64,000 bases of DNA, from the NCBI GenBank assembly GCA_965279515.1, contig CBDIID010000003.1:1952001-2016000 (forward strand). The letters are read 5' to 3'. A model generated the notes under the pieces. That model was not told the origin of the DNA. It made no database searches and saw only the letters and a program-made list of their open reading frames with translations. Within the stretch, counting starts at the first letter, position 1; every line of letters begins with the position of its first letter. This stretch comes from Turneriella sp. (GTDB lineage Bacteria; Spirochaetota; Leptospiria; Turneriellales; Turneriellaceae). This document shows, in pieces, positions 9,201 to 28,575 of this stretch. The translations under genes and the position numbers were made by a program.

Positions 9201-12200
9201 TTACATATTCCTGCGGTAACTGCCGCCGACCTCATAGAGCGCCCCGGTAATCTGACCCAAAGAGCAGGTCTTCACCGTCTCCATGAGTTCGGCAAAGACA
9301 TTGCCCGATTTAAGCGCGACGTGGCGCAGCTTATCGAGCGCTTTCGGCGTTTCATCGGCGTGGAATTTTTCGAATTCACCGAGCGAGACAATCTGCCGCT
9401 GCTTTTCTTCGTCGGTCGAACGCATGAGTTCGCCATGGTAATATTCCGTCTCTGCGCTGAGAAAGGTGTTCACACCGACAATCGGCAGCTCGCCCGAAGA
9501 TTTCAGCTTTTCGTAAAATAAACTTTCTTCCTGGATCTTGTTGCGCTGGTACATCGTCTCCATCGCGCCCAAAACACCGCCGCGGTCTGAGATGCGGTCG
9601 AACTCTTTGAGGATGGCCTCCTCCACAAGGTCGGTGAGACGCGTGATGAAAAAGCTACCCTGCAGCGGGTTTTCATTTTTAGTGAGCCCCAGCTCGCGGT
9701 TGATGATGAGCTGAATGGCAATCGCGCGGCGCACGGATTCCGGTGTCGGTGTTGTCACCGCCTCGTCGTAGGCATTGGTATGCAGGCTGTTGCAGTTGTC
9801 CATGATCGCATAGAGCGCCTGCAACGTAGTGCGGATGTCGTTGAATGAAATTTCCTGCGCGTGCAAACTGCGGCCGGATGTCTGGATGTGGTACTTTAAT
9901 TTTTGCGAGCGCGCGTCGGCCTTATAGAGATTGCGCATGGCAATCGCCCAGATGCGGCGCGCCACGCGGCCGATCACCGCGTATTCGACATCCATACCGT
10001 TCGAGAAAAAGAAACTGAAATTGCGCGCAAAGGCGTCGATCTGCATGCCGCGGCTCAGGTAATATTCGGCGAGAGTAAAGCCGTTCGCGAGCGTGAACGC
10101 GACCTGGGTGATCGGGTTTGCCCCCGCTTCGGCAATATGATAGCCTGAAACGCTGACTGAATAAAAGTTCGTCACATCGTTGTTGATGAAGAACTGCTGG
10201 ATATCCCCCATGACCTTGAGAGAAAATTCGGCAGAGAATATGCAGGTGTTCTGCGCCTGATCTTCCTTTAGAATATCAGCCTGCACCGTGCCGCGCACCT
10301 GCGACAGCGTCTTCTTGCGGATGTTCGCGTAAACTTCGGCAGGCACGACGTGCTCGCCGGAAACACCGAGGAGTGACAGGCCCAGGGAATTGTGGTTCTC
10401 AGGCAGTCCGTCGCGGTATTCGGGTGGTTTCAGGCTTTTTGCGCGGTAGAGATCCTGGATTTTCTTTTGTGCTTCGGCAAGTTTACCTTCGTTTTTAAGA
10501 TAGGTCTCAATCTGCTGATCGACCGCGGCATTCATAAAGAACGCGAGAATCGTCGGTGAAGGTCCGTTGATCGTCATCGAAACGCTGGTTGTCGGTGCCG
10601 AAAGATCAAAGCCCGAATAGAGCTTTTTCATGTCGTCGACCGTGCAGATCGAAACTCCGGCATTGCCGATCTTGCCGAAAATGTCGGGCCGTTCCGCAGG
10701 GTTCTCGCCATAGAGCGTGATCGAGTCGAAGGCCGTTGAAAGCCGCGCGGCGGGTTGCCCCTTTGCAATCAGGTGAAAGCGTTTGTTCGTGCGCTCGGGC
10801 GAACCTTCGCCCGCAAACATGCGCGTTGGATCTTCGCCTTCGCGCTTGAACGGAAAAACGCCCGAGGTAAAGGGAAATTCGCCGGGAATATTCTCTTTGA
10901 GAATGTACTCAGCAAGAGCACCCCAATCTTTAAAGGGAGCCGGCGCGACCTTGGCCGTCAAGGTATCAGAAAGCGATGGCACGCCCGCACGCACAGTAAT
11001 CTCTTTGTCGCGCACGTTGTAACTAAAGGTCTCTTTGCTATAATCGCGGCGTATCTGCTCAAACGATTCCAAAGATTTCAGGAGCTTTGGATCGATTTTA
11101 CCGCGCAACTCTGTTTGTTTTGCATCAATGCCCGCCGCCGCAGCGCCCGTGAGCAGGCTTTTTGCTGTCTCAAGCGCCTGTATCTGCCGCGCGAACTCGG
11201 CTTGTTCTTCCGCATTGTGGTGATAGCCGCGCACGGCGTCGGCGATTTCTGAAAGATAGCGCGTGCGCTTCGCAGGAATAAAATCATCGCTGACAGAAGC
11301 CGACTCGATCACGACGGCCGGCTTGAGATCGCCTTTAAGCAAACCTTTCTTCTGCAGAATGCCGGTGAGTGCCGCAAAGGCATCATCGACGAGCTTGTCG
11401 CCAAAACGGTTCGCCACCGTGGGATAAATCGGCAACTCTTCGTCCTTTTGCGTCAGCAATGCATGATTGCGGCGATACTGCTTACGCACCTGAATAAGAG
11501 CGTCTTCGGCGCGCACGCGATCGGACTTATTGATGATGACCATATCGGCATAATCGAGCATCGCGATTTTCTCGAGCTGCGTTGCCGCGCCATACTCCGG
11601 CGTCATGACATAGACCGACATGTCGCAGAGATCAGTGATTGCGGTATCTGACTGGCCGATGCCCGCCGATTCAATAACGATGAGATCAAACTTTTCACCA
11701 CGCAAAAAAGCGAGGATGTCTTTGAGTGTCGACGAGATCGCCGCGTTATCTGTACGCGTCGCGAGTGAGCGCATGAAGATTTTGCCGTCATTGACAGAGT
11801 TGAGCCTCAGGCGATCACCCAGGAGAGCACCGCCGGTTCTTCGTTGCGTCGGATCAACGGACAAAAGAGCGAGTTTCAGACCAGGATACAACAATTTAAA
11901 GCGGCGGAGAAATTCATCGATGAGCGAAGATTTACCCGCGCCGCCCGAGCCGGTGAAACCGAGCACGGGAACTTTCCCTTGCCCCCGATTCACATCGGGG
12001 GCAAGGGCACCCGATTCAATCTGTGATATGCGGCGCGAGAGCAAATGGCCATAGTCTGAGTAGAGATCCCCCTCTGCTTTTTCTGGACGTTTCGATGCAG
12101 CCGCCTTGGCAATCATGTCGCGCGCCATACCGTCAAGACCGAGCGCGCGCCCGTCATCGGGCGAATAGATACGCTCAACACCATAGGCCATGAGGTCCTT

Positions 12201-14165: not shown

Positions 14166-15224
14166 CTAATCATTGCGGCCAAAATCGATTACATAGGATA
14201 AGGAAAACCCCATACGGTACAACAGGTTTTGCTGTGGTTCATTCAAATACCTTAGGAAGGGCACCTGAAAAAAACAGGAAATTGCAAGCCCCGAAGGCCA
14301 CGCCACAATCATGCCGGGTGACACAAATGCCACAGTACCACCCGTATTCGTAATTGTCGTACCCGAAGATTCGGCGCGCGCCTGGTGGCGCATCGCAAAT
14401 TCAGCGAACAGAGAAAAGTTCGCCTCGTCGCGGCCTCCCCAGCGCTTTTGCAACGAGACGCCCCAGTCAAGACTGTCTCCGATCTTATAATTTTGTGACT
14501 CCGAACGCCGCGTAAACAATACCGAGGAGGATAGTGAGACCCCCTCCGCTATCCATCGCGAATATGCAGCAGCTCCTGAATAATCCCAGGCACCACTGCC
14601 CGGTGTGAGCGATGGTTCGTAGGAGTATTTCTGCGCCAGGGGGTCGCCACTCGCTGCACCCACAAGGTGAAACGAGGGATTTCTCGAATTAGACGCGTAG
14701 GTTGATAAGGGTTGCGATTCGTCGACGGCATAATATTTACCCAAGGGAGCCTTGACTGCAGCCAATACCGCAAAGCTGTGGGTTTCGTCTTTCAGCACAC
14801 GCCATTTCAGGCTAAAATCCGGATCAGCGATTCCGGCCACGGTGCCTAAGTCTAGTTGCCGGTATGTACCCCCTGAATCAATCAAGCCCTCGCGGATATT
14901 TTCTCCCCGGTAGTAACGAAACCTGAAACCGGCTTCAACACTGTCACGCAAACCATAGGCGATGGTTGTGACAGCCATGAGACTTTGGCGTATGGCGTCG
15001 ACATGGGTGCCCAAGCCCCCGGCTTTCTGTGTGAGTTCCTTGAGTTGTGCATCAGAAAAGCGCTCATAACTATTGCCTATGATAGCCTGCCCAAGAGCCA
15101 GAGTTCTTCTCTTCAATGTATTGGGTTCAATCAATGTTGCGCCGGCCCCGGTCGTCAAGGGGCCATGATCGGCACTGACGCTGCCCAATGAGATTGCGAA
15201 ACAGCAGATGTAAAAATATTTCAT
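14166..15224 (-). CDS. Outer-membrane beta-barrel transporter (Phenol_MetA_deg/SphA-like), mature N-terminus DHGP
   Basis: AGGAG RBS before ATG 15224, signal peptide, GIADPDFSLK, VKAPLGK, PGSGAWD, NTGG, alternating C-terminal strand; paralog of 18702..19793. Confidence 0.75.
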   Translation of the reverse strand: MKYFYICCFAISLGSVSADHGPLTTGAGATLIEPNTLKRRTLALGQAIIGNSYERFSDAQLKELTQKAGGLGTHVDAIRQSLMAVTTIAYGLRDSVEAGFRFRYYRGENIREGLIDSGGTYRQLDLGTVAGIADPDFSLKWRVLKDETHSFAVLAAVKAPLGKYYAVDESQPLSTYASNSRNPSFHLVGAASGDPLAQKYSYEPSLTPGSGAWDYSGAAAYSRWIAEGVSLSSSVLFTRRSESQNYKIGDSLDWGVSLQKRWGGRDEANFSLFAEFAMRHQARAESSGTTITNTGGTVAFVSPGMIVAWPSGLAISCFFQVPFLRYLNEPQQNLLYRMGFSLSYVIDFGRND

Positions 15225-15234
15225 GAAAAAACTC

Positions 15235-16488
15235 CTAAGGATTGTTGAAATGTCCTGCGGGCCAGGGGTTTGCATACGCCGGGTTATTGATAAACTTCGT
15301 ATCGGTGAGCGACTTCAGAAATTCAATGAGGTCAGCGCGTTCTTGCGTGGTAAGGGAAAATCCCTTGACGAAAGAATTTTTCAAGGGAGAAAGTTTTCCA
15401 TCTCCTGCATTAGGTCCCGAAGCAATCAACCTGCCCCCGCGGGCGTAATGATCAATGACGCCGTCGAGATCTGTGACCGAACCATCATGCATGTAAGGTG
15501 CGGTGAGTTCGACATTGCGAAGTGTGGGCGCCTTAAAACGCCCCATATCCGCCGCATTTCCCGTTACGTCCTTAATTCCCTGGCTGGCCGTGGGATACGC
15601 ACCGGTACCGCCCAGATTATAGAGACCATTATTCGCAAAATCTATTTCGGCAAAAGATTTGCGCGAGTGATCCTCGCTGTTCGTAAAATTGATACCTGTG
15701 TGGCAATGAAAACATTCGAGATTTTCGCTGTTAAAGAGATTCAACCCGTTTTTCGCTGATGCGCTAAGAGCTGCAGAGTCGCCCCGGTTATAGCGGTCAA
15801 AAGGAGAATCAAAGCCGATGATGGAGCGTTGAAAGACTTCGAGTGCGCGGGTTATATTCCCCATGGAAAACGGATCGCCCGTATCCGGAAATGCAGTGCG
15901 GAAAAGTTTTTGATAAATTGAATCTGCCCGCATTTCAGCGAGCCGGACATTTTCAAAGCCAGTCATGCCAAGTTCGACCGGATTCTCCCCGAAAATCGGT
16001 ACCTGCGCCTGAATATTCAGTCTTTTCATCAGCGGGTTTTCCCACGTAACGACCGGCTGCCACGCAATGTTGACAATATGCATACTGTTGCGCGGATGAA
16101 AATCCCCGGTCGAACCTTTCGCAGTGAGAATACGATCTGTTCCCGATTTTGAAAAATCAGCGCTGCCATCGTTGACATTCATGTCATCGGCAAATGCATT
16201 CGCCTGGTGATGGCAGGTGGCGCAGGCAAACGTCTTGTTACCGGAGAGCCGTTTGTCATAGAAAAGATGGCGTCCAAGTTCAACCTTTTCGTACGTCATC
16301 GGATTATCCGCCAGGACCCGCGGCGGTGGAATATTCGCGGGAATTTGCCAAACGTAATCTCCCGAGGGCGTTATCAGCTTCGGGGTGAAATTCTCGCACC
16401 CCACAGCCACAAGCAGCCCACCGCACGCGCCGAGCGCGCGTACGGAGACCGCTTGTTTTAAGGCGGTTAAAAAGCCGGAAACAATCAT
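15235..16488 (-). CDS. MbnH-like di-heme enzyme (bCcP/MauG superfamily), lipoprotein
   Basis: NPMT..KVELGRHLFYD.RLS, CATCH, CFHCH, FKAPTLRNVELTAPYMHDGS, FLKSLTD; adjacent to MbnP. Confidence 0.9.
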   Translation of the reverse strand: MIVSGFLTALKQAVSVRALGACGGLLVAVGCENFTPKLITPSGDYVWQIPANIPPPRVLADNPMTYEKVELGRHLFYDKRLSGNKTFACATCHHQANAFADDMNVNDGSADFSKSGTDRILTAKGSTGDFHPRNSMHIVNIAWQPVVTWENPLMKRLNIQAQVPIFGENPVELGMTGFENVRLAEMRADSIYQKLFRTAFPDTGDPFSMGNITRALEVFQRSIIGFDSPFDRYNRGDSAALSASAKNGLNLFNSENLECFHCHTGINFTNSEDHSRKSFAEIDFANNGLYNLGGTGAYPTASQGIKDVTGNAADMGRFKAPTLRNVELTAPYMHDGSVTDLDGVIDHYARGGRLIASGPNAGDGKLSPLKNSFVKGFSLTTQERADLIEFLKSLTDTKFINNPAYANPWPAGHFNNP

Positions 16489-17459
16489 TCGACGCGGAAA
16501 AAAGACTGGGTCGAACTCTGTGTCACCTGACCACCGCTTACCGCCGCATACGATGTTCCGTTTGTCGCATCCCGTGCTGCATTTGTTGTACCTGTATAAC
16601 TATAGGCGAGTCCAAGGCGAGGCATGACAAAACGGCATTCCGGATCGCCGGTTCCCGACATACATCCGGCAGGTGCTCCCTGGTCCGCAGTGTTCAGGTT
16701 CAGATCGCGCACGACTTCTTTAAGGTCGGCGATAATGCGCAGCGAAGAAAGTGACGACAAACCGTTTTGGTAGGCTTCGGGAATATTCAGAGTCACCTCG
16801 GGGCGATTCGGTGTGGTACAGGTTACCTGATCCTGCGTTGCCCCTGTTTGTGTGCAGCTTAAGCTACCAATATGAACATTGAAAGCCGAAGCGTCATATC
16901 CGCCACCGCCTGAGGTCAGAAAGTCGAGCCGGGCTGCTTTGCGTCCACTCGTCCACGACCAGTAAAGAGCCGCAACATTGAGAGGGGCTGGAGCATTGTT
17001 CACGTCAAGATGATTCAAGCTGGATGGAATCCCGAGCGTGAATTTAATCTTCGAGTACTTATCGCCTGCCGTCACCGCAACAGTCCCCTTAACCTGGGAA
17101 TTTGTTGCGCTCGTAGGGCCGGTAGTCGCTGCGCAACCGCCCGTACCATTCTCAAAATCGAGGAGTGTAACGTTTTGGTACTGCCAGGTATTGTCTGCTG
17201 TCAAAGAAACGGTGACCTCACTGCCGTCCGATTTCACCAGTTTTACGTCATGAATATAGAAACGAAAATCGCGCGCAGCAAGCTGGGTCGACCCGGTACC
17301 AACACCGGAATAAGTCGTACCGCAGGCAAAATCTGCCGAACCGACTTTGGCTTGAAAATTCAGGACTAAATCCGTGGTATTCGCATCGATCTGGGTTTTT
17401 ACGCATCCCGCGGTAAAAAACATACCGCAAAGCATGGTTATGATTATTTTGTTTTTCAT
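16485..17459 (-). CDS. MbnP-family copper-binding lipoprotein (four-Cys metallo-mystery partner)
   Basis: FACG, DFRFYIHDV, WQYQNVTLLDFENG, FTLGIP..LNH, WxW (YWSW), CTTPNRP, GCMS..DPEC. Confidence 0.88.
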   Translation of the reverse strand: MKNKIIITMLCGMFFTAGCVKTQIDANTTDLVLNFQAKVGSADFACGTTYSGVGTGSTQLAARDFRFYIHDVKLVKSDGSEVTVSLTADNTWQYQNVTLLDFENGTGGCAATTGPTSATNSQVKGTVAVTAGDKYSKIKFTLGIPSSLNHLDVNNAPAPLNVAALYWSWTSGRKAARLDFLTSGGGGYDASAFNVHIGSLSCTQTGATQDQVTCTTPNRPEVTLNIPEAYQNGLSSLSSLRIIADLKEVVRDLNLNTADQGAPAGCMSGTGDPECRFVMPRLGLAYSYTGTTNAARDATNGTSYAAVSGGQVTQSSTQSFFRVE

Positions 17460-17483
17460 TTTTTTCTCCTTGTAAATTTTGGG

Positions 17484-18131
17484 TTAAAAAGTCATGGCAA
17501 CGCTCAGAAGGGGTTGCACGCTTAAGGCACTCGCCGAATAATCCGTACTTGCCCCGCCGCCGCTGGCCGCCTGGCTGACGGTCCAAAAAAAATACGAGAA
17601 ATTCACCGCGCCACCGACAAAGATATGGGTGGCGATTTCATAATCGTATCCCACCCGCAAAGCGGCGAGCGGACTGACTGCTGTGTACGTGGTCGCCGTT
17701 GCCCCCGAAATCTTGAGCAGGTTTATGCTCGCGCCGAGACCGAGACCCACGTAGAGATTTTTTACTGGAAAATACCGCGCATACGCTGCGACAGGCACCT
17801 GGGTAAGCTGGGTCGTATTCGTCGCAGAACCGATCGTAGCATTATTCTTGTAGGTAACCTGGTATCCGCCGGATATCCCCAATTGAGAGCTACTGTTACC
17901 GTACCACAGGGTTACGCCAAACGCCGGCGAAAGCACGGCACCGTTATCGGAGCCATAGACCGTCTCAACCGCAGAAGCGTATGAGCTTTTTGTGGCGTAA
18001 TTGATACCGCCATAAACCTGACCGATAAGATTCGCAGAGCGCCAAAACTCGTGGGGTGCTGGCTTGGTTTCTGCGGACAGCGTTCCAAAACCGGCAAATA
18101 TTGAACATAGAAAAATAATTCGTAATTTCAT
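17484..18131 (-). CDS. Small outer-membrane beta-barrel protein
   Basis: GAGG RBS before ATG 18131, signal peptide, amphipathic strands (YVGLGLG, LRVGYDY), C-terminal Phe. Confidence 0.7.
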   Translation of the reverse strand: MKLRIIFLCSIFAGFGTLSAETKPAPHEFWRSANLIGQVYGGINYATKSSYASAVETVYGSDNGAVLSPAFGVTLWYGNSSSQLGISGGYQVTYKNNATIGSATNTTQLTQVPVAAYARYFPVKNLYVGLGLGASINLLKISGATATTYTAVSPLAALRVGYDYEIATHIFVGGAVNFSYFFWTVSQAASGGGASTDYSASALSVQPLLSVAMTF

Positions 18132-18249
18132 AAATTCCTCGTAATTAAAAATTTTTGATGATCGCGCACACCGGAAGTGAGCAAACAAAACGCCTGACCA
18201 CGCGACTCAATGGCGCGGGCTTTAAAGCGGAAATTGCTACTTGTGTGCG

Positions 18250-18639
18250 CTAAGCCCGGGGGGGCGGAGTTTCAATGTCGGCAAGGTATGAAATGTAAAG
18301 AGGAGAGCTGATTTGAATGGCGGAAACATGGTATTGCACCGCGGTTAATCCCACCTGATTGCCCGTGAATACCCAGCGCGCGAACGCTGGCAGCACAGAA
18401 TCGTCGGCTTCGTCGGCGCAGGGATGGTCGGCTTTCAGAATTTTCGCCTTTGCCATGGCCTTGTTCAGCCTGTTGCATCCGCAGGGGCAATCTTTGCCCT
18501 TTTGCACTTTCTGCTTTGTATGAACGCAGAGAAAATATTTCGGTTGCTGCGCCGTAGCAACTTCAAAAGCACCAGCGAGCTGAGCAATAAACAGCGTGAG
18601 GCCAAAGCCGTGCAAGATTTTACACCGGAACACGCGCAT
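18250..18639 (-). CDS. Putative metal-sensing leader/arrest peptide 1 (DUF2946/CutF/CruR-analogous)
   Basis: Signal-like N-terminus, CVH...CPCGC...C, C-terminal DIETPPPRA; first gene of an MbnPH operon. Confidence 0.72.
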   Translation of the reverse strand: MRVFRCKILHGFGLTLFIAQLAGAFEVATAQQPKYFLCVHTKQKVQKGKDCPCGCNRLNKAMAKAKILKADHPCADEADDSVLPAFARWVFTGNQVGLTAVQYHVSAIQISSPLYISYLADIETPPPRA

Positions 18640-18701
18640 GCGTCCAGAATTGATGGCGAGACGCTCCGTCAAGAGATATAAAGATCTTTTATTTCACTTG
18701 T

Positions 18702-19793
18702 TTACCCTGCCTCGTTGTGGTTGTGGTGAGAGTAAAGGCTGAAATTCCATGAAACGCCGAAATTCAGCCTGCCCTCGACTTTCTGCTGCGGCTCGTTCAA
18801 CATCTGCAAAACCGGAAATTCTTTGGAGATAAAACAGCCGAGTTCGAGCGGCAGATTCAAACGCATACCCACAGTCCAGAACGTGATAAGACCCCCACTG
18901 TTAACAATTATCGCGTCATGGTCGCGGGACTTCATCATATAACGCGCGGTTAACTCGGTGAAGGTAAAGAGTTTCGTGCGATCGAGATCAAATGCCCTGA
19001 ACGAAAGCGCGACGCCGCCGTCGATGCGGTCTCCGATTTTATAGGTCTTGTAATAGCCGCGGTAGATATAACTGCCGCTCGCGGTCAGTGTGAAGACATT
19101 CGCAAATTGTTTACTGGCTGCAAGACCCGCCATAAAATCTACGCTCCCACTGCCGGGTGTCGCCGACGGATCGAGAGAAAACTGATCTGTTCCCCCGGCG
19201 CCCGAGACCACATGATAGCTCGGCTGCGGAATGTTGCCGCCCGCAACCTGCGCAGCGGGTAGAGAATTCAAGGCCACCGACTCGCTGGCGCCCGCGAGGT
19301 TGCCGGTGGGTAACTTGACCCCGCCCAACCCCGCGAGGGTCCAGCCTGCGCCGGAGAAAAATTTCACCTTGCCATTCAGCCAGAGGTCGGTGAGACCCGC
19401 GACATTTCCCGCGTCGATGAGCTTGTAGGCAGTATTCGAATCAAGCACGCCCTCGCGTAAGCGGTGCCCGTAATACCACCCGATCGTCGCCGATGCGTCG
19501 AGCCATGAGAGAATGCCATAACCCAAAGTCACGTTCGAGATCGACCCCAGGCCCAGCGTGTCGATATGCGATCCCGCCGTCTTCATCTTCTGTGTCGCGT
19601 CTGAGATCGCCACGTCAGGGTATTCTGCGTACGAAGTAAAACTCTGCATAATGGAGAGCGAGAAATGATGGCGCTCAATCGTATCGGGCATGATCACGCT
19701 GCCGGTGGCCCCCGTCGTTCCGGGCCCATGGTCGGCGTGTACGAAACTTTGCAGCAGGGATAGAAACAAAAAAACGGAGAGAATATTTTTCAT
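18702..19793 (-). CDS. Outer-membrane beta-barrel transporter, mature N-terminus DHGP, His-rich C-tail
   Basis: Signal peptide VHA|DHGP, GLTDLWL.GK, VKLPTG, PGSGSVD, NSGG; ends HHNHNEAG. Confidence 0.78.
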   Translation of the reverse strand: MKNILSVFLFLSLLQSFVHADHGPGTTGATGSVIMPDTIERHHFSLSIMQSFTSYAEYPDVAISDATQKMKTAGSHIDTLGLGSISNVTLGYGILSWLDASATIGWYYGHRLREGVLDSNTAYKLIDAGNVAGLTDLWLNGKVKFFSGAGWTLAGLGGVKLPTGNLAGASESVALNSLPAAQVAGGNIPQPSYHVVSGAGGTDQFSLDPSATPGSGSVDFMAGLAASKQFANVFTLTASGSYIYRGYYKTYKIGDRIDGGVALSFRAFDLDRTKLFTFTELTARYMMKSRDHDAIIVNSGGLITFWTVGMRLNLPLELGCFISKEFPVLQMLNEPQQKVEGRLNFGVSWNFSLYSHHNHNEAG

Positions 19794-19815
19794 ATAATTT
19801 CCTTGAAATAAAACA

Positions 19816-20988
19816 TTATGGATTGTTCGATGACCCCTTCGGCCAGGGGTTCGAGAATTTGGGATTCGTCACAAATTCCGTATCGGTGAGGCTACGCAGA
19901 AATTCTATCAGGTCGCTTTTGTCGCCAGCAGTAAAACTGCCACTAAAGTTCTTTACCAGCGGATTCTTGCGCGTGTTGAGAGCCCCGTCGCCATCGAAAC
20001 CGGCGCCTTTACCGGTTACATTGCGGCCGCCGCGCTTATAATGCTCGATCACATTATCGAGAGTATCGATCGAACCGTCGTGCATATACGGCGCCGTGAG
20101 TTCGATATTTCTGAGCGTCGGTGCCTTAAAGCTGCCGTTATCAGCGACATTGCCCGTCACGAGGTTGAGGCCGCTGTTGCCGCTCGGGAAGACATTGGCG
20201 TTGCCAACGTTATAGATCCCATTGTTCAGAAACTGGATGTCGGCCGCTACCTTGCTGTAATAGTCTTCGGCGCTCGAAAAGGTAATACCCGCATGGCAGT
20301 GAAAACAATCCGCGGTTTCACCAAAAAAGAGGTTCATACCACGCTTTGCCGCTGCGCTCATCGCCGTCTTATCGGTGCCCGTGATATACTTGTCGTATGG
20401 AGATTTGCCGCTGATCAGCGTACGCTGAAAGGCCTCGAGCGCATCGCGTATGTGAGCGACAGAAATCGTCGGGGCATCCTTGGCAAAGGCGGCATTAAAG
20501 AGACCAACGTATTTGTCATCGGCCGCAAGCCGCGTCACGACTGTAGCTTCCATACCCGCAAGCCCCAGCTCGACCGGCGTCGTACCAAAGAGCGGCACAT
20601 TTGCCTGTACATTGAGCCGTGTCTGCAATGAATTCGCCCAGGTCAGCACCGGCTGGTACGCGAGGTTAATCAGCGACATCGAGTTGCGCGGATGCGCCTC
20701 ACCTGTCGAGCCGATGCCCACGGTGAGGCCGTCTGAGAACGCCTTGTTCTGGTGGTGGCAGCCTGCACAGGCCTGCGTCTGGTTACCTGACAGGCGTTTG
20801 TCGTAGAAAAGATGGCGACCCAGATCGACCTTCTCGTTGGTCATCGGGTTATTTTCAAATTCGCGTGGCCGTGGGAAACCGGGGGGGAGATCCCACTTAA
20901 ATGCGCTGGGCTCCTGGATGTATTTGAAATCCAGGTTCTGGCAGCCGACGGCCACGAGGGCCAGAGCGAAACTCAATACCGTACGCAT
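19816..20988 (-). CDS. MbnH-like di-heme enzyme, lipoprotein
   Basis: CAGCH, CFHCH, FKAPTLRNIELTAPYMHDGS; clear paralog of 15235..16488. Confidence 0.9.
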   Translation of the reverse strand: MRTVLSFALALVAVGCQNLDFKYIQEPSAFKWDLPPGFPRPREFENNPMTNEKVDLGRHLFYDKRLSGNQTQACAGCHHQNKAFSDGLTVGIGSTGEAHPRNSMSLINLAYQPVLTWANSLQTRLNVQANVPLFGTTPVELGLAGMEATVVTRLAADDKYVGLFNAAFAKDAPTISVAHIRDALEAFQRTLISGKSPYDKYITGTDKTAMSAAAKRGMNLFFGETADCFHCHAGITFSSAEDYYSKVAADIQFLNNGIYNVGNANVFPSGNSGLNLVTGNVADNGSFKAPTLRNIELTAPYMHDGSIDTLDNVIEHYKRGGRNVTGKGAGFDGDGALNTRKNPLVKNFSGSFTAGDKSDLIEFLRSLTDTEFVTNPKFSNPWPKGSSNNP

Positions 20989-21972
20989 CTATTCTACCCT
21001 GAAGAAGACCTGGCCCGAGGTAGGGTAAACAGTGGGAGATCCCGCACTGCTCGCAGTTAAGCCGCGCGCGGTGGATGACCCCGTATAAGAGAAGTCGACA
21101 CCCCAGTTGTTGAGTACGGCCTTACACTCGGGATCGCTGCGGTCAGAGTGACAGCCCGGCTGCGTGCCCCCGGTATTCGCGATCGAGAAATCCGTGTCTT
21201 TATAGAGCTCTTTCGCGTCGGCGACCACTGTCTGCCCGTAAGTGAAGTTCAATTCTATTGCCGGCCGGTTCGATGTGTCGCAGACAATGTCGGGCGGCGA
21301 CGCGAAGGTATCACAATCGATACTGCCCAAATGCGTGAAAAACGGATTGTACGTGTTTACGTTGAACTCCACGACCGCATGTTTGTAGCCGGTCGTCCAG
21401 CTCCAGAACATATACGTCACGTTGAGCGGCGCATTGGTGTTGCCGACGCCATTCTGATTGAGGTTCTGCGGTACGCCGAGCTTGAAGCGTAGCTTCGTAA
21501 ACGTGAGCGCCTCGCTCGCGGCGATGGTGCCACGCACCGTGGTATTCGTACCGGCATTACCCTGTGCAGCGCACTGCGTACTAGCGGCGGCATTCTCAAA
21601 ATCGAGCAGCGCGAGGTTCTGGTACTGGTAGGCGGCATCTTGAGTGAGGGTGACGGCGACTTCGCTGCCATTGGCCCTCACGAAACGCACGTCGTGCACA
21701 AAGAAGCGGAAATCTTTGGGCACGAGCGTCGCTCCGCCGCCAGCGCCGACACCGGAATAACTGGCCGTCGAACAATCGAAGACCTGCGTCCCGACCTTGG
21801 CAGCAAACTGTATCGTCACATTTTGCTGGGGTACGGAGCTGCCCGAACCCGAGCCCGCCGAAGACCCCGCTTCGGCTTTCTTTTTTTCTTCATCAATCGC
21901 CTGCAATATTTTATTGTCTGCGCATGCACTCAGCGAAAGAAAAAGTGCGGCGAAAAATAGATATATTTTCAT
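20989..21972 (-). CDS. MbnP-family copper-binding lipoprotein
   Basis: Lipobox LSAC, DFRFFVHDV, LLDFEN, FWSW, CDTSNRP, GCHS...PEC. Confidence 0.88.
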   Translation of the reverse strand: MKIYLFFAALFLSLSACADNKILQAIDEEKKKAEAGSSAGSGSGSSVPQQNVTIQFAAKVGTQVFDCSTASYSGVGAGGGATLVPKDFRFFVHDVRFVRANGSEVAVTLTQDAAYQYQNLALLDFENAAASTQCAAQGNAGTNTTVRGTIAASEALTFTKLRFKLGVPQNLNQNGVGNTNAPLNVTYMFWSWTTGYKHAVVEFNVNTYNPFFTHLGSIDCDTFASPPDIVCDTSNRPAIELNFTYGQTVVADAKELYKDTDFSIANTGGTQPGCHSDRSDPECKAVLNNWGVDFSYTGSSTARGLTASSAGSPTVYPTSGQVFFRVE

Positions 21973-21980
21973 ATCATCTC

Positions 21981-23030
21981 CTAATCCAATCGGAATTCTT
22001 TTCTTTTCAGAAAATTTTCGTCGGTAAGGGTCAGTAAAAACTCTTTGAGGTCGGCTTTATCCTGCGTCGAAAAATGAAATCCGCCTGCCGGTAGTTTGGC
22101 ATCGAGTGTCGCAGACCGCTGAATACCCGATGAATAATGTTCGATCACGGCCTCAAGCGTCGCAAAACGCCCGTCGTGCATGTAGGGCTTTGTCACGGCA
22201 ATGTTGCGCAATGTGGGAGTGCGGAATTTGCCGATGTCTTCGTTCTTGCGGGTGATACGAAACCGGCCCATGAGCTGACCTTCGTGGTCGGGGGGATATT
22301 TGGTATCGAGACCGTTGTTGTGATAACCATTATCGGTCAACAGCGGGCCGTTATGACACACGGCGCATTTGCCGGTATACAGATTGCGCCCCCGTGCTTG
22401 TGCGTCGTTGAGCATGCCCTCTTGTCTCAGCACACGATCATAGAGCGAATCGAAAGAAACGAGGGTTCGCACGAATTGCGCCAGCGCCTGCAGCATGTTT
22501 GTGATAGACACCTGCTGGTCGGGAAACGCCTTTTCAAATGCGCGGCGGTAAGCACCGTCAGCCCTGAGCTTATCGAGCGAAACGCCGATCGGTTGTCCCA
22601 TTTCATCTGCGTTATGCAATGGTCCAATCAGCTGCGACTCAATATTTTTAGCACCGCCATCCCAGAATAAGCCGTTGTTCGACCAGGCGAGGTTAATGAG
22701 AGCCGGAGAGTTGCGCGTCGCCGGTTTGCCCGACACGCCGCTCTTCGCCAATGCGACGCCATCGCTGAACGCCAGCGATTGATCGTGACAGGTCGCGCAG
22801 CTGACTTTGTCATTGGCAGAAAGCCTTGGCTCATAAAACAGCCTGCGCCCGAGCGCGATAATTTCCTTTCGGAATCTATTGGTATCAGGCTCGGGCAACG
22901 GCCCCAGAAAGCGCAGTGTTTTGGGATGTGCATATTCGTGCACGGCAAGCACCGGATTTTCAGACCGGCAAGCGATCACGAACAGCGCACCCCAAAGCGC
23001 GGCAAGCCGCGCTTTGTTGGTCACGCGCAT
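21981..23030 (-). CDS. Di-heme cytochrome c peroxidase/MbnH-like protein
   Basis: LGRRLFYEPRLS, CATCH, FWDG, CAVCH, FRTPTLRNIAVTKPYMHDG. Confidence 0.88.
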   Translation of the reverse strand: MRVTNKARLAALWGALFVIACRSENPVLAVHEYAHPKTLRFLGPLPEPDTNRFRKEIIALGRRLFYEPRLSANDKVSCATCHDQSLAFSDGVALAKSGVSGKPATRNSPALINLAWSNNGLFWDGGAKNIESQLIGPLHNADEMGQPIGVSLDKLRADGAYRRAFEKAFPDQQVSITNMLQALAQFVRTLVSFDSLYDRVLRQEGMLNDAQARGRNLYTGKCAVCHNGPLLTDNGYHNNGLDTKYPPDHEGQLMGRFRITRKNEDIGKFRTPTLRNIAVTKPYMHDGRFATLEAVIEHYSSGIQRSATLDAKLPAGGFHFSTQDKADLKEFLLTLTDENFLKRKEFRLD

Positions 23031-23032
23031 GA

Positions 23033-24634
23033 TTACGGTACGCTGGCCGAGGTTACCGAGAACACGTTGTTCTGGTAAGCGTTAGCCAAATTACCCATGA
23101 GCGCCGAATTGGTCGATGCATTGATGTACTTAGGCGACCCGGAAACTGTCGAGGTATTCACACCCGCACCACCATTAACCTGGAACAGTTTCGCCACGTT
23201 TGCCCGAACGTTAATCACCGCATTCTTGCCTTTGGTTAGCGTTATGCTCGCAGGAAAAGTTAAGGCTGTCAGGCTGCGATAATTTGCGTTTGCGCCGATA
23301 TCGAAGCCAAAATTGACAGAACCGCAACTCACGCACTGCCCGGTAATTTGTGAAAACAGGTAACTACTATTCCACATCCAGGTATACGTTGCCATATCAC
23401 GGTGAATATGCAGCTCTCCTGCTTGCAGGCTTAGGTTGTTGTTATAGGTCGAGTCTACACCAACCGAAAACTGGATGGCTGTGTAAGTCCCTGATGGCAC
23501 ATCGGCAATCGAAATTTGCTCACGGTTGGCCGCCGCAATCGTCATACCGCTATTGATGTTGCCTGGGCTAATCGCACTGTTTGTTGTCATCAGATAGTAA
23601 CTACCCGGCACGGAGTATTGCGTTGTGTCCGCTTTGGTAAGTTTAACGTTGCTTATCCAATAGCGAAAACGCGTAAAACGCAACGTGTTACTGTGATCAT
23701 CGGTATACGTCGTATTCAGCGCAAAGGTGGTGCCGTTAAAATCCTTGGCGACGTTAATTGTCGCAGTGCCGACATCGGCTTCAGAAACCGCCGTGGTAGT
23801 GGCGCTTACAAGGCTTACCGCAGAAGCAAAGTTTGCGGCTACGGTACTCATCTGGCCGGCATTATTGAAGCCGTTGATAGCACGCTTTGTAACACCCGTA
23901 TCGACGCTAACTGTGCCAATATCGATACCCGCGAACAATTTTTCTACGTCAATCTTTGCGACAATCGTTGGGGCAGAGGTCGCACTGACAGTGATATTCG
24001 TGGGAAAGCTCAGTGTTTTAGTCTGATAATTTGCATTCGTACCAAATTCGAGCGCAAAAGCCTGCTGCCCTGAGCAGCTTGTGCAGGTTCCCGAAGTTTT
24101 GCCAAAAATGTAGCTGGTAACCCACGACCACTCGATGTTGCCCATATGAGAAAAGAGGTGAAGTTCCCCTGTTCTCAAGCTCAGATCGTTATTATACGTT
24201 GAATCGACGCCTACGCTGAATTTAATCCCTTTATAGCTTCCGACAGGGACTTTTTTCAGGGTCACATTTTCCCTATTTCCCGCCGCCAGATTAAAGTTAG
24301 GCACGCGTTCGCCAGTCGTATCGCCCGTGACAGCATTATTCTGCGAAAGCAGGTAATACGCGTCCGGCACCGCAACTTCGGAATTGTCGTCCTTGATGAA
24401 TTTAACGTTCGATACCCAATAACGAACCTCGTTGATGGTGATTGTGTTTCCCGCTGCTGTCGTATACGATGTGCCGAGAGCAAAAGCCGCCCCATTGAAA
24501 TACTTCGGCATTTGCAGCGAAACCTCGCCCGTTTCGCTGGCAGATGCAGCGGTGGTACCAGATTCCTCTGAATTTTTTGCGCAGGCACCCAATAGCGCGC
24601 TGCAAAGTAAGATAAGATAAAATTTCGATTTCAT
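23033..24634 (-). CDS. Tandem two-domain MbnP-like lipoprotein
   Basis: GGAGG RBS before ATG 24634, lipobox LGAC; two internal repeats each with RYW.SNVK, F(S)VGVDSTYN, WxW (EWSW / TWMW) and CxxC. Confidence 0.8.
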   Translation of the reverse strand: MKSKFYLILLCSALLGACAKNSEESGTTAASASETGEVSLQMPKYFNGAAFALGTSYTTAAGNTITINEVRYWVSNVKFIKDDNSEVAVPDAYYLLSQNNAVTGDTTGERVPNFNLAAGNRENVTLKKVPVGSYKGIKFSVGVDSTYNNDLSLRTGELHLFSHMGNIEWSWVTSYIFGKTSGTCTSCSGQQAFALEFGTNANYQTKTLSFPTNITVSATSAPTIVAKIDVEKLFAGIDIGTVSVDTGVTKRAINGFNNAGQMSTVAANFASAVSLVSATTTAVSEADVGTATINVAKDFNGTTFALNTTYTDDHSNTLRFTRFRYWISNVKLTKADTTQYSVPGSYYLMTTNSAISPGNINSGMTIAAANREQISIADVPSGTYTAIQFSVGVDSTYNNNLSLQAGELHIHRDMATYTWMWNSSYLFSQITGQCVSCGSVNFGFDIGANANYRSLTALTFPASITLTKGKNAVINVRANVAKLFQVNGGAGVNTSTVSGSPKYINASTNSALMGNLANAYQNNVFSVTSASVP

Positions 24635-24638
24635 ATTT

Positions 24639-24750
24639 CCTCCAAATTCCAAAATCTGCCGTAAACTTACGGCGCGCACACGGCTCGCCTTAGCTGACCG
24701 CGCGCAAATAGCCTGAGATTTTGCTCAGGGTATGTTATGTGAATTTAGAG
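24639..24750 (-). promoter_or_regulatory. Anti-SD/SD attenuator structure between leader 2 and tandem MbnP gene
   Basis: mRNA CUCUAAAUUC (spans leader stop) pairs 10 bp (one G-U) with GAAUUUGGAG overlapping the GGAGG SD. Confidence 0.65.
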
Positions 24751-25137
24751 CGCCCGGGGGGGCGGAGTTTCAATGTCGGCGAGATAGGATTTATAGAGAG
24801 GAGAACTGATTTGAATTAGCGAAATACGATACTGCACCGCGGTTAATGCCACTTCATTGCCCGTGAACACCCAGCGCGCGAAAGCTGGCAGCACAGAATC
24901 TTCGGCCTCATCGGCGCAAATACGGTCAGATTTCAGAATTTTCGCTTTTGCCATTGCTTTTTTTAACTTACTGCAACCGCAGGGGCAAGCTTTGTGCTTT
25001 TCAATTTTTTGTTTGGTATGAACGCAGAGATAATATTTGGGTTGCTGCGCGTGGATTACCTCAAAGGCACCGCTGATTTGCGCGAAAAACAACACCAAAC
25101 CGAAGCCGTGAAGAACTTTGTAGCGCTTTAGCCCCAC
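24745..25137 (-). CDS. Putative metal-sensing leader/arrest peptide 2
   Basis: Close paralog of 18250..18639 (CVH...CPCGC...C...DIETPPPRAL); GTG 25137 aligns with the paralog's ATG. Confidence 0.72.
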   Translation of the reverse strand: MGLKRYKVLHGFGLVLFFAQISGAFEVIHAQQPKYYLCVHTKQKIEKHKACPCGCSKLKKAMAKAKILKSDRICADEAEDSVLPAFARWVFTGNEVALTAVQYRISLIQISSPLYKSYLADIETPPPRAL

Positions 25138-25258
25138 AGCTGAAACCCCGCCCAAACAAGTGCCCGGTCAACCATTTTTCAAGATGAGTCGCGAGTCAAA
25201 AAATCCGGACACATTGTTTGCACAATGTGTCCGGTAGTGTTAGCAGTTGAAACGAGAT

Positions 25259-28002: not shown

Positions 28003-28173
28003 AGTTTGAACTCCTTATAGTTAATAATGTATAGGTTAAGCCGCGCGCAATAATCGGTGTTTATATGCTGCGCCATCAGGTACAGCGACGTCACCGGCGC
28101 GAATCACGGCAGTGAGAGGGCATACCTGTGGCTGCGTGCGATTCAGGCTGATTCAATGCGCGGCAGGCGGCGC

Positions 28174-28575
28174 TTAGGCCGCAGCAGATCGGGGTGGAGG
28201 CGGAGTTACTTCAGCGATAATACTATGATAAAATGGATCAATACTGGGGACAACCACAGTGAAATAACGGGGAGTCGGCACCGAAAACGGTAAGTATATG
28301 CCGCCGAAGCGATCAAAATTCGGCATGTGAGCAATATCGTCATCGGGGCTGGCACAGACATCGTCGGCGTCGACGAGCACCGCGATTTTTTTGGGTGACT
28401 TATGCTTGTGCCCGCACGGACAGGGATTTCCCTTCTGTACGCGCACCTTCATGTGGGGACACATATAATATGTTTTCACCTGTAGATTCGAAACGAGGTC
28501 GGGCACAGCCGACAATTGCAATGTAAAAAGAAAAAGACCACAAAGATGAATCGGCGTGAGAAAGCGGATCAGCAA
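28174..28575 (-). CDS. Putative metal-sensing leader/arrest peptide 3 (start uncertain, ORF extends to 28641)
   Basis: Hydrophobic N-region, CPH...CPCGH...C, C-terminal EVTPPPPRSAAA. Confidence 0.65.
   Translation of the reverse strand: MLIRFLTPIHLCGLFLFTLQLSAVPDLVSNLQVKTYYMCPHMKVRVQKGNPCPCGHKHKSPKKIAVLVDADDVCASPDDDIAHMPNFDRFGGIYLPFSVPTPRYFTVVVPSIDPFYHSIIAEVTPPPPRSAAA

Follow-up and report, generated by a model that had tools for sequence, protein, structure and literature searches.

The mRNA that joins a small gene of Turneriella sp., here called leader 2, to the tandem MbnP gene downstream of it contains a predicted 10-bp helix between the end and stop codon of the leader and the MbnP gene's Shine-Dalgarno (SD) sequence, and this helix is confirmed as real and as rare by chance. 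By analogy with characterized stalling leaders, we favor, with some reservation, the view that it serves as the OFF latch of a ribosome-stalling switch of the CutF/SecM type acting on the MbnP operon. Coordinates refer to the window, that is, the whole stretch of 64,000 nucleotides that was analyzed, and the features described lie on its minus strand.

Folding of the minus-strand RNA showed that CUCUAAAUUC (24750–24741) pairs with GAAUUUGGAG (24649–24640) over 10 bp with one U–G, exactly as a preliminary description of this DNA had proposed. This helix, P1, is the outer helix in both the MFE and the centroid structures, where it closes a multiloop of three hairpins. Its 5′ arm (24741..24750; pair probability 0.98) consists of a Leu codon, the UAA stop of leader 2 (24747–24745) and four further nucleotides, and its 3′ arm (24640..24649) lies over the SD. 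The SD itself, GGAGG (24639..24643), is complementary to the 3′ end of the 16S rRNA of this genome and stands 4 nt upstream of the ATG (24634), which a gap of 110 nt separates from the leader stop; the earlier claim that the helix overlaps it holds for GGAG, whereas the fifth G stays free. The inner hairpins are P2 (24712..24729), P3 (24676..24705), which contains G–U pairs and is the least conserved (85% of cells paired), and P4 (24658..24673; 94% of cells paired). Three hairpins had indeed been described, but the third was written without a loop and is really a stem of 6 rather than 8 bp with a 4-nt loop (24673–24658). The minus-strand fold reached −48.6 kcal/mol (z −2.74; equalled in 2/200 shuffles), whereas the plus-strand fold was weaker (−41.2, z −1.63, 15/200 shuffles) and its helix was interrupted at the wobble. 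In the folding model the SD stayed closed when any single inner hairpin was swapped for an unpaired run, which makes the multiloop dispensable there. Altering the left arm of P1 freed GGAG just to 0.01–0.24; therefore the SD has backup partners in the model, the partner probably being the anti-SD in the Thr-Pro codons of the leader. A scan with Rfam covariance models returned no match in positions 12000–34000 of the window or in seven loci. P4 together with a U-run was considered as an intrinsic terminator and rejected: a terminator scan made no such call, and the orthologous gap of genome G001 lacks the U-run.

To judge how often such a helix arises by chance, we shuffled the gap between stop and SD 1000 times with the leader and the SD held fixed, and used as controls 202 same-strand gaps of this genome, taken from our own gene calls (3759 genes). 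A helix of at least 10 bp formed in 7/1000 shuffles and in 1/202 control gaps, and an equal pairing probability was reached in 8/1000 and 3/202, respectively. Stop-to-SD helices of this length, whose frequent occurrence in such sequences had been named beforehand as evidence against the proposal, are thus uncommon in both. Duplex energy was as good in 78/1000 shuffles, which is not significant.

The four-helix fold is kept by leader 2 and by two orthologues, L031 and the copy in G001; of 96 cells, 93.8% pair in register, compared with 23–47% when the partners are slid as a control. P1 contains eight invariant pairs and three with two-sided change. P2 has six pairs in 3/3 orthologues, two of them changed to G–U, and P2 and P4 together show three one-sided changes that preserve pairing as G–U on the coding strand. 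The covariation check suggested earlier thus found the outer helix kept across the three rows, but all two-sided changes are adjacent, involve G001 and may represent a single event; covariation support from three related rows is weak. In the G001 gap, a repeat of about 60 nt is inserted at the SD, and P1 there pairs with the first GGAG. The true SD of G001 is predicted to be closed by the insert (unpaired 0.06) and to be opened to 0.79 by a ribosome on the leader end. As a separate observation, a two-hairpin repeat of about 60 nt occurs at the downstream SD of L002, L013 and L015, with nine matches at E <0.01 in the genome studied here (G000; examples on contig C3 at 1511035–1511095, 2512604–2512665 and 4778979–4779047). 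It often stops just ahead of the SD/ATG of unrelated genes, and its 5′ arm contains a further GGAG. Rfam returned nothing for the three loci scanned; the repeat may be REP-like, or it may be an RNA for translational control that has yet to be named.

The gene behind the helix (23033..24634) encodes two PF20243 domains (E 1e-69, two stretches) with two WxW motifs, falls under the cut-off of TIGR04052, and by eye has a lipoprotein-like N-terminus (LLGAC). GTG 24679 was considered as an alternative start and rejected, since upstream in-frame extensions vary among orthologues and an MKS/TK start after GGAGG is common to them. The predicted unit continues, after gaps of 2, 8, 0 and 22 nt, with genes for a di-haem CCP/MauG-family protein, MbnP, MbnH and an unnamed exported protein (18702..23030); 20989–21972 is MbnP (TIGR04052) and 19816–20988 is MbnH (TIGR04039), both above cut-off. 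According to a published account, MbnP binds copper via a kynurenine that MbnH makes (PMC11951088). Within 14166–23030 there are, in addition, three genes for MbnP and three of the di-haem CCP/MbnH kind, arranged as two duplicated units with a leader at the head of each. A search of contigs with the single-domain MbnP returned the G001 contig alone. Among sequencing runs compared with the window, X2 and X5 proved identical to it and may be where it derives from, and the match of X1 was confined to 168 nt within mbnP.

Leader 2 probably heads its own transcript, because a terminator-like hairpin with a 13-bp stem and a U-run (25205..25234) closes the upstream cytochrome c unit. A predicted −35 hexamer, TTGACC (25166..25171), lies 34 nt upstream of GTG 25137, a spacing that recurs in the family, where 21/31 leaders have a −35 element 32–37 nt upstream of an in-frame start, and in the genome, where TT[GT]AC peaks 33–34 nt upstream of called starts (133 and 109, together 242, of 3759, against about 10 at each other position). 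Since TTGACC sits at this genome-wide peak spacing, leader 2 is likely a 130-aa protein (24745..25137) translated from a leaderless mRNA that starts at the GTG. The genome-wide peak, which had no clear −10 box in the examples seen, in itself suggests several hundred leaderless mRNAs transcribed from a strong −35 element. Judged by purifying selection (dN/dS 0.13–0.15 against its three nearest relatives, L031, L002 and leader 1), leader 2 is a real protein. It consists of a basic N-terminus with a hydrophobic helix (residues 2–28 in a low-confidence AF2 model, pTM 0.32) that could be an uncleaved anchor, Cys38/51/53/55/74 with the motifs CxH and CPCGC, a linker that is disordered in the same low-confidence model, and a C-terminal TPPPRAL. 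The nearest Cys lies 53 residues before the last Pro. The Thr-Pro-Pro-Pro-Arg codons (24754..24768) are the predicted pause site, and their Thr-Pro codons read ACUCC, the anti-SD of sister leaders.

Four paralogous leaders occur within the window and none elsewhere in this genome. The family was found in 13/13 genomes of the same genus and in one further genome, and in none of the 27 genomes that represent the second family sampled within the class. Among 1.84 billion representatives the A2 profile matched 22, of which one or more are repeat artefacts; P0015 was set aside as an artefact of a low-complexity repeat. Named members are Turneriella hypothetical proteins, and none of the 10 looked up is named CutF or DUF2946. 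In Pfam/NCBIfam searches no family model matched any of 29 leaders, and neither did the DUF2946 profile (PF11162) at E up to 1; searched against the genome, that profile gave one sub-cut-off match elsewhere. Language-model features resemble those of small secreted Bacteroidota proteins and of a DUF2946-named cluster (0.95, 138/256 features), which serves as a lead only. Four Cys residues are invariant in 29/29 leaders and TPPP is also invariant, CPxC is confined to the leader 4 clade, and the nearest conserved Cys lies 48–54 residues ahead of the last PP in 31/31 leaders. The Cys and His residues form a putative metal site. The set of 31 leaders, for which downstream starts were set by hand, leaves out L026, which lacks an intact leader, as well as duplicates on L018 and L028, L036 (cut), L037 (leader ORF not found), L032 and L035 (near-identical to L004) and L034 (near-identical to L017). 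In other clades (L010, L012–L015, L019, L030 and L020–L025), the genes behind the leader encode CxxC thioredoxin-like proteins, where the leader ends in PPDxPS, or exported proteins of 277 aa that carry SCG..CP at the N-terminus, where it ends in KPG or PPG; the tail motif therefore varies within the family. Outside the window, a minus-strand ORF ending at 2030304 of contig C3 is a fifth Cys-rich leader, ending in PPPRRS; by profile it falls outside the family, and the SD that follows might pair with its Pro codons.

We then measured pairing between the SD and the leader end, defined as the last 36 nt of the leader or 12 nt past the stop, at a pairing probability of at least 0.5. The SD paired with the leader end in 26/31 leaders and 29/202 controls, and with the stop window in 15/31 and 7/202, counts that overstate the case inasmuch as the 31 leaders are kin. 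Opening relief was at least 3 kcal/mol in 20/31 leaders and 24/202 controls (median 4.3 vs 0.2). Pairing was 0.70 for native ends, 0.40 for synonymous recodes and 0.24 for control gene ends, and the native value exceeded the recode in 28/31 leaders, so proline codons explain part, not all, of the pairing. Swapping leader ends between clades was non-discriminating (native 0.70 vs 0.60, native higher in 21/31).

The position of the partner differs among clades. It overlaps the stop in the leader 2 and leader 4 groups, lies just ahead of the stop in the CxxC-protein group, and is contained in the Thr-Pro-Pro codons of most other MbnP leaders and of most other clade-A members, including L017, which precedes the same tandem MbnP gene. 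In leader 2, L031, leader 4, L009 and L011 the helix begins 10 nt past the base that opens the final Pro codon. Thr was encoded by ACT in 15/15 Thr-Pro pairs of the leader ends, which are related sequences, against 500/3616 (14%) genome-wide. The run of prolines, and not the stop, anchors the helix, and the conserved feature is a position under a ribosome at the prolines. The preliminary description, which placed a second anti-SD at the stop of leader 2, is thus supported in locating one at the leader end, but not in taking the stop as the anchor. It had also argued that the likeness to leader 4, built from a different sequence, speaks against chance. Leaders 2 and 4 are paralogues and hence not independent systems, which takes force from that argument; a separate origin of the two helices nonetheless appears likely. 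In the tree, the leader 2 group is nested within users of Pro codons (support 94/92) and separated from the leader 4 group, and because of this nesting the leader 2 helix likely arose anew; a tree that forced the two groups together was rejected at a borderline level (p-AU 0.044), with long branches present. Leader 1 (78% identical) is the closest paralogue and showed no SD pairing (0.09) and no ribosome effect in the model, and L025 and L007 likewise lacked pairing of the SD to the leader end. We noted that the leader 1 gap (18132–18252) forms a long stem-loop from the stop that is unpaired to the SD; leader 1 may use another output, such as Rho, or have lost control. In the leader 3 gap (28003–28176), AACUCC of the Thr-Pro codons pairs with the SD in front of a c-type cytochrome gene, which lies 171 nt past the stop, and a local hairpin also covers that SD.

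A ribosome covers 12–15 nt past its P-site. With this footprint, walking a ribosome along leader 2 in the folding model raised the unpaired probability of the SD from 0.18 to 0.85 only once the P-site had reached Pro2 or Pro3, and L031 also switched at Pro2/Pro3; an EF-P gene is present in the genome. In the mechanism that we propose, P1 would hide the tandem-MbnP SD, and the latch would stay open while a ribosome pauses on the PPP codons. The leader would be exported co-translationally, by analogy with CutF and CruR, and the Cys module, 53–89 residues ahead of the last Pro, would lie past the roughly 47 residues needed to exit the tunnel and membrane. Copper binding or disulfide folding at this module would, on the model of the same two leaders, alter the length of the pause, and a long pause would turn the MbnP/MbnH operon ON. 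Copper is probably the cue. We lean slightly toward an operon that is ON at low copper, with CruR-like release by copper, over one that is ON at high copper as for CutF, because the former fits the MbnPH and TonB-receptor targets. The predicted amplitude of the switch for leader 2 is modest, at an opening relief of 3.3 kcal/mol, which 17/202 controls reach as well. A wider reading, which we offer jointly with a relay in G001 and regard as rather doubtful, is that Turneriella-specific, periplasm-sensing stall leaders wire a copper/redox regulon (MbnP/MbnH, TonB receptor, c-type cytochromes and CxxC thioredoxin-like proteins) through an evolvable RNA latch whose anti-SD moved repeatedly between Pro codons and stop but remained beneath the stalled ribosome. 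In the relay, P1 would hold a decoy GGAG, the insert thus freed would cover the true SD, and a ribosome would flip the arrangement.

The helix might instead mediate long-range translational coupling, in which each ribosome terminating at the UAA briefly opens P1 and MbnP expression follows that of the leader, with no sensing involved. In the model the SD is equally open with a ribosome at the stop (0.86), and P1 holds the stop itself, as coupling would predict. Against this, the anti-SD lies in the Pro codons of many members, as far as 34 nt ahead of the stop's end, and coupling needs no invariant Cys, PPP or fixed Cys-to-Pro spacing; we consider it unlikely. A similarly low probability attaches to the idea that the helix is a by-product or stability element, if anything a slightly lower one: an unpaired, purine-rich SD would catch any C-rich, Pro-coding gene end. 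The SD of leader 2 does pair at 0.55 with random gene ends and equally well with leader ends of other clades (0.87 vs 0.82), 3/14 synonymous recodes equal the native pairing, and the unremarkable duplex energy and the origin of all covariation in G001 point the same way. A by-product would, however, hardly be expected to show a helix length so rare in shuffles and controls, three two-sided changes that keep P1, one-sided changes in P2 and P4 that go to coding-strand G–U, and the ACT codon bias at Thr-Pro.

Transcriptional control of the CruR type could also dominate, with a stalled ribosome shielding a C-rich site from Rho and the helix acting as a secondary layer or pause site. A C-rich, weakly folding stretch of leader 2 (24778..24855; C–G skew 0.24) is a weak candidate for a Rho loading site: its MFE is weaker than that of 98% of 601 control gene ends. 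Rho is present in the genome, the skew of the leader 3′ half exceeds 0.1 in 25/31 leaders compared with 20% of controls, 23/31 leaders fold more weakly than their recodes, and leader 1, which lacks the anti-SD helix, keeps a C-rich stretch (skew 0.29); CruR, moreover, uses long structured gaps. However, the skew is nearly all driven by amino-acid content (0.22 vs 0.20 recoded; for leader 2 alone, 0.24 vs 0.20), and it is SD-specific pairing that is enriched across the family. We therefore think it improbable that Rho dominates; as the two layers would push in the same direction, such control is compatible with SD occlusion.

The latch reading draws on three published groups of leaders. In R. 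capsulatus, when the exported CutF binds copper, the ribosome stalls at PPP in opposition to EF-P and the stem-loop that covers the cutO SD is melted (PMC9973294). Leader 2 resembles it in being a small, Cys-containing leader, predicted here to be exported, with a C-terminal PPP (PMC9973294, 10.1101/2025.02.05.636593, PMC8456105), in a predicted RNA structure past the leader that hides the SD, and in its copper-related target. It passes four of the CutF-like filters given there: under 150 aa (130), PP in the last 15 residues, a gap of 110 nt to the neighbor, and a putative Cys/His metal site; for another, a Sec signal peptide, its basic N-terminus with the hydrophobic helix is a candidate. Its nearest Cys, 53 residues from the last Pro, comes close to the 45 residues of CutF. 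In the portion of the supplement to PMC9973294 that was examined, the CutF list holds no Turneriella or spirochaete entry. Leader 2 differs from CutF in its 110-nt gap with a three-hairpin multiloop (40 bp and one stem-loop in CutF), in a 5′ arm that takes in the last codon and stop, in its Cys pattern (C-x12-CxCxC...C vs CxxxC), in its target (MbnP/MbnH vs a multicopper oxidase) and in matching no DUF2946 profile. In B. pertussis, copper releases the arrest of CruR, which occurs when Pro-Pro occupies the P and A sites, and Rho then terminates transcription (PMC9426467, PMC12992588). CruR-bfrG shares with leader 2 a Cys-containing uORF, a Pro-Pro site and a long structured gap, and CruR homologues head MbnPH, TonB-receptor and AhpC/TSA operons (PMC9426467, PMC12992588), targets also found behind the leader family. 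CruR has RAPP at its end and works by way of Rho termination, whereas leader 2, ending TPPPRAL, lacks the CruR signature of CXXC plus C-terminal RAPP, and its best-supported layer is the predicted occlusion of the SD. SecM, MifM and VemP likewise use a stalled ribosome to open an SD-sequestering structure, as predicted here, but what they monitor is Sec/YidC activity, and the genes under their control are secA, secDF or yidC (PMC10987492); in leader 2, by contrast, the Cys module is conserved and the genes behind it encode copper proteins. The architecture is therefore the published CutF/SecM principle and not new (PMC9973294, PMC10987492); the novelty lies in the leader family and its target, in the long-range form of the multiloop and in an anti-SD that moves. 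A literature search covering few subscription papers returned nothing on the leader family or on stall control of MbnP.

If the proposed switch is correct, the natural series of anti-SD placements (Pro codons, pre-stop, stop and relay) would provide a test of how far a stalled ribosome reaches into downstream structure. The poorly understood MbnP/MbnH proteins outside methanotrophs would come under nascent-peptide control, and the direction of the switch, ON or OFF with copper, would tell a role in copper uptake from one in detoxification. CutF/CruR-type sensing would, moreover, extend to a spirochaete family of leaders that has no Pfam model.
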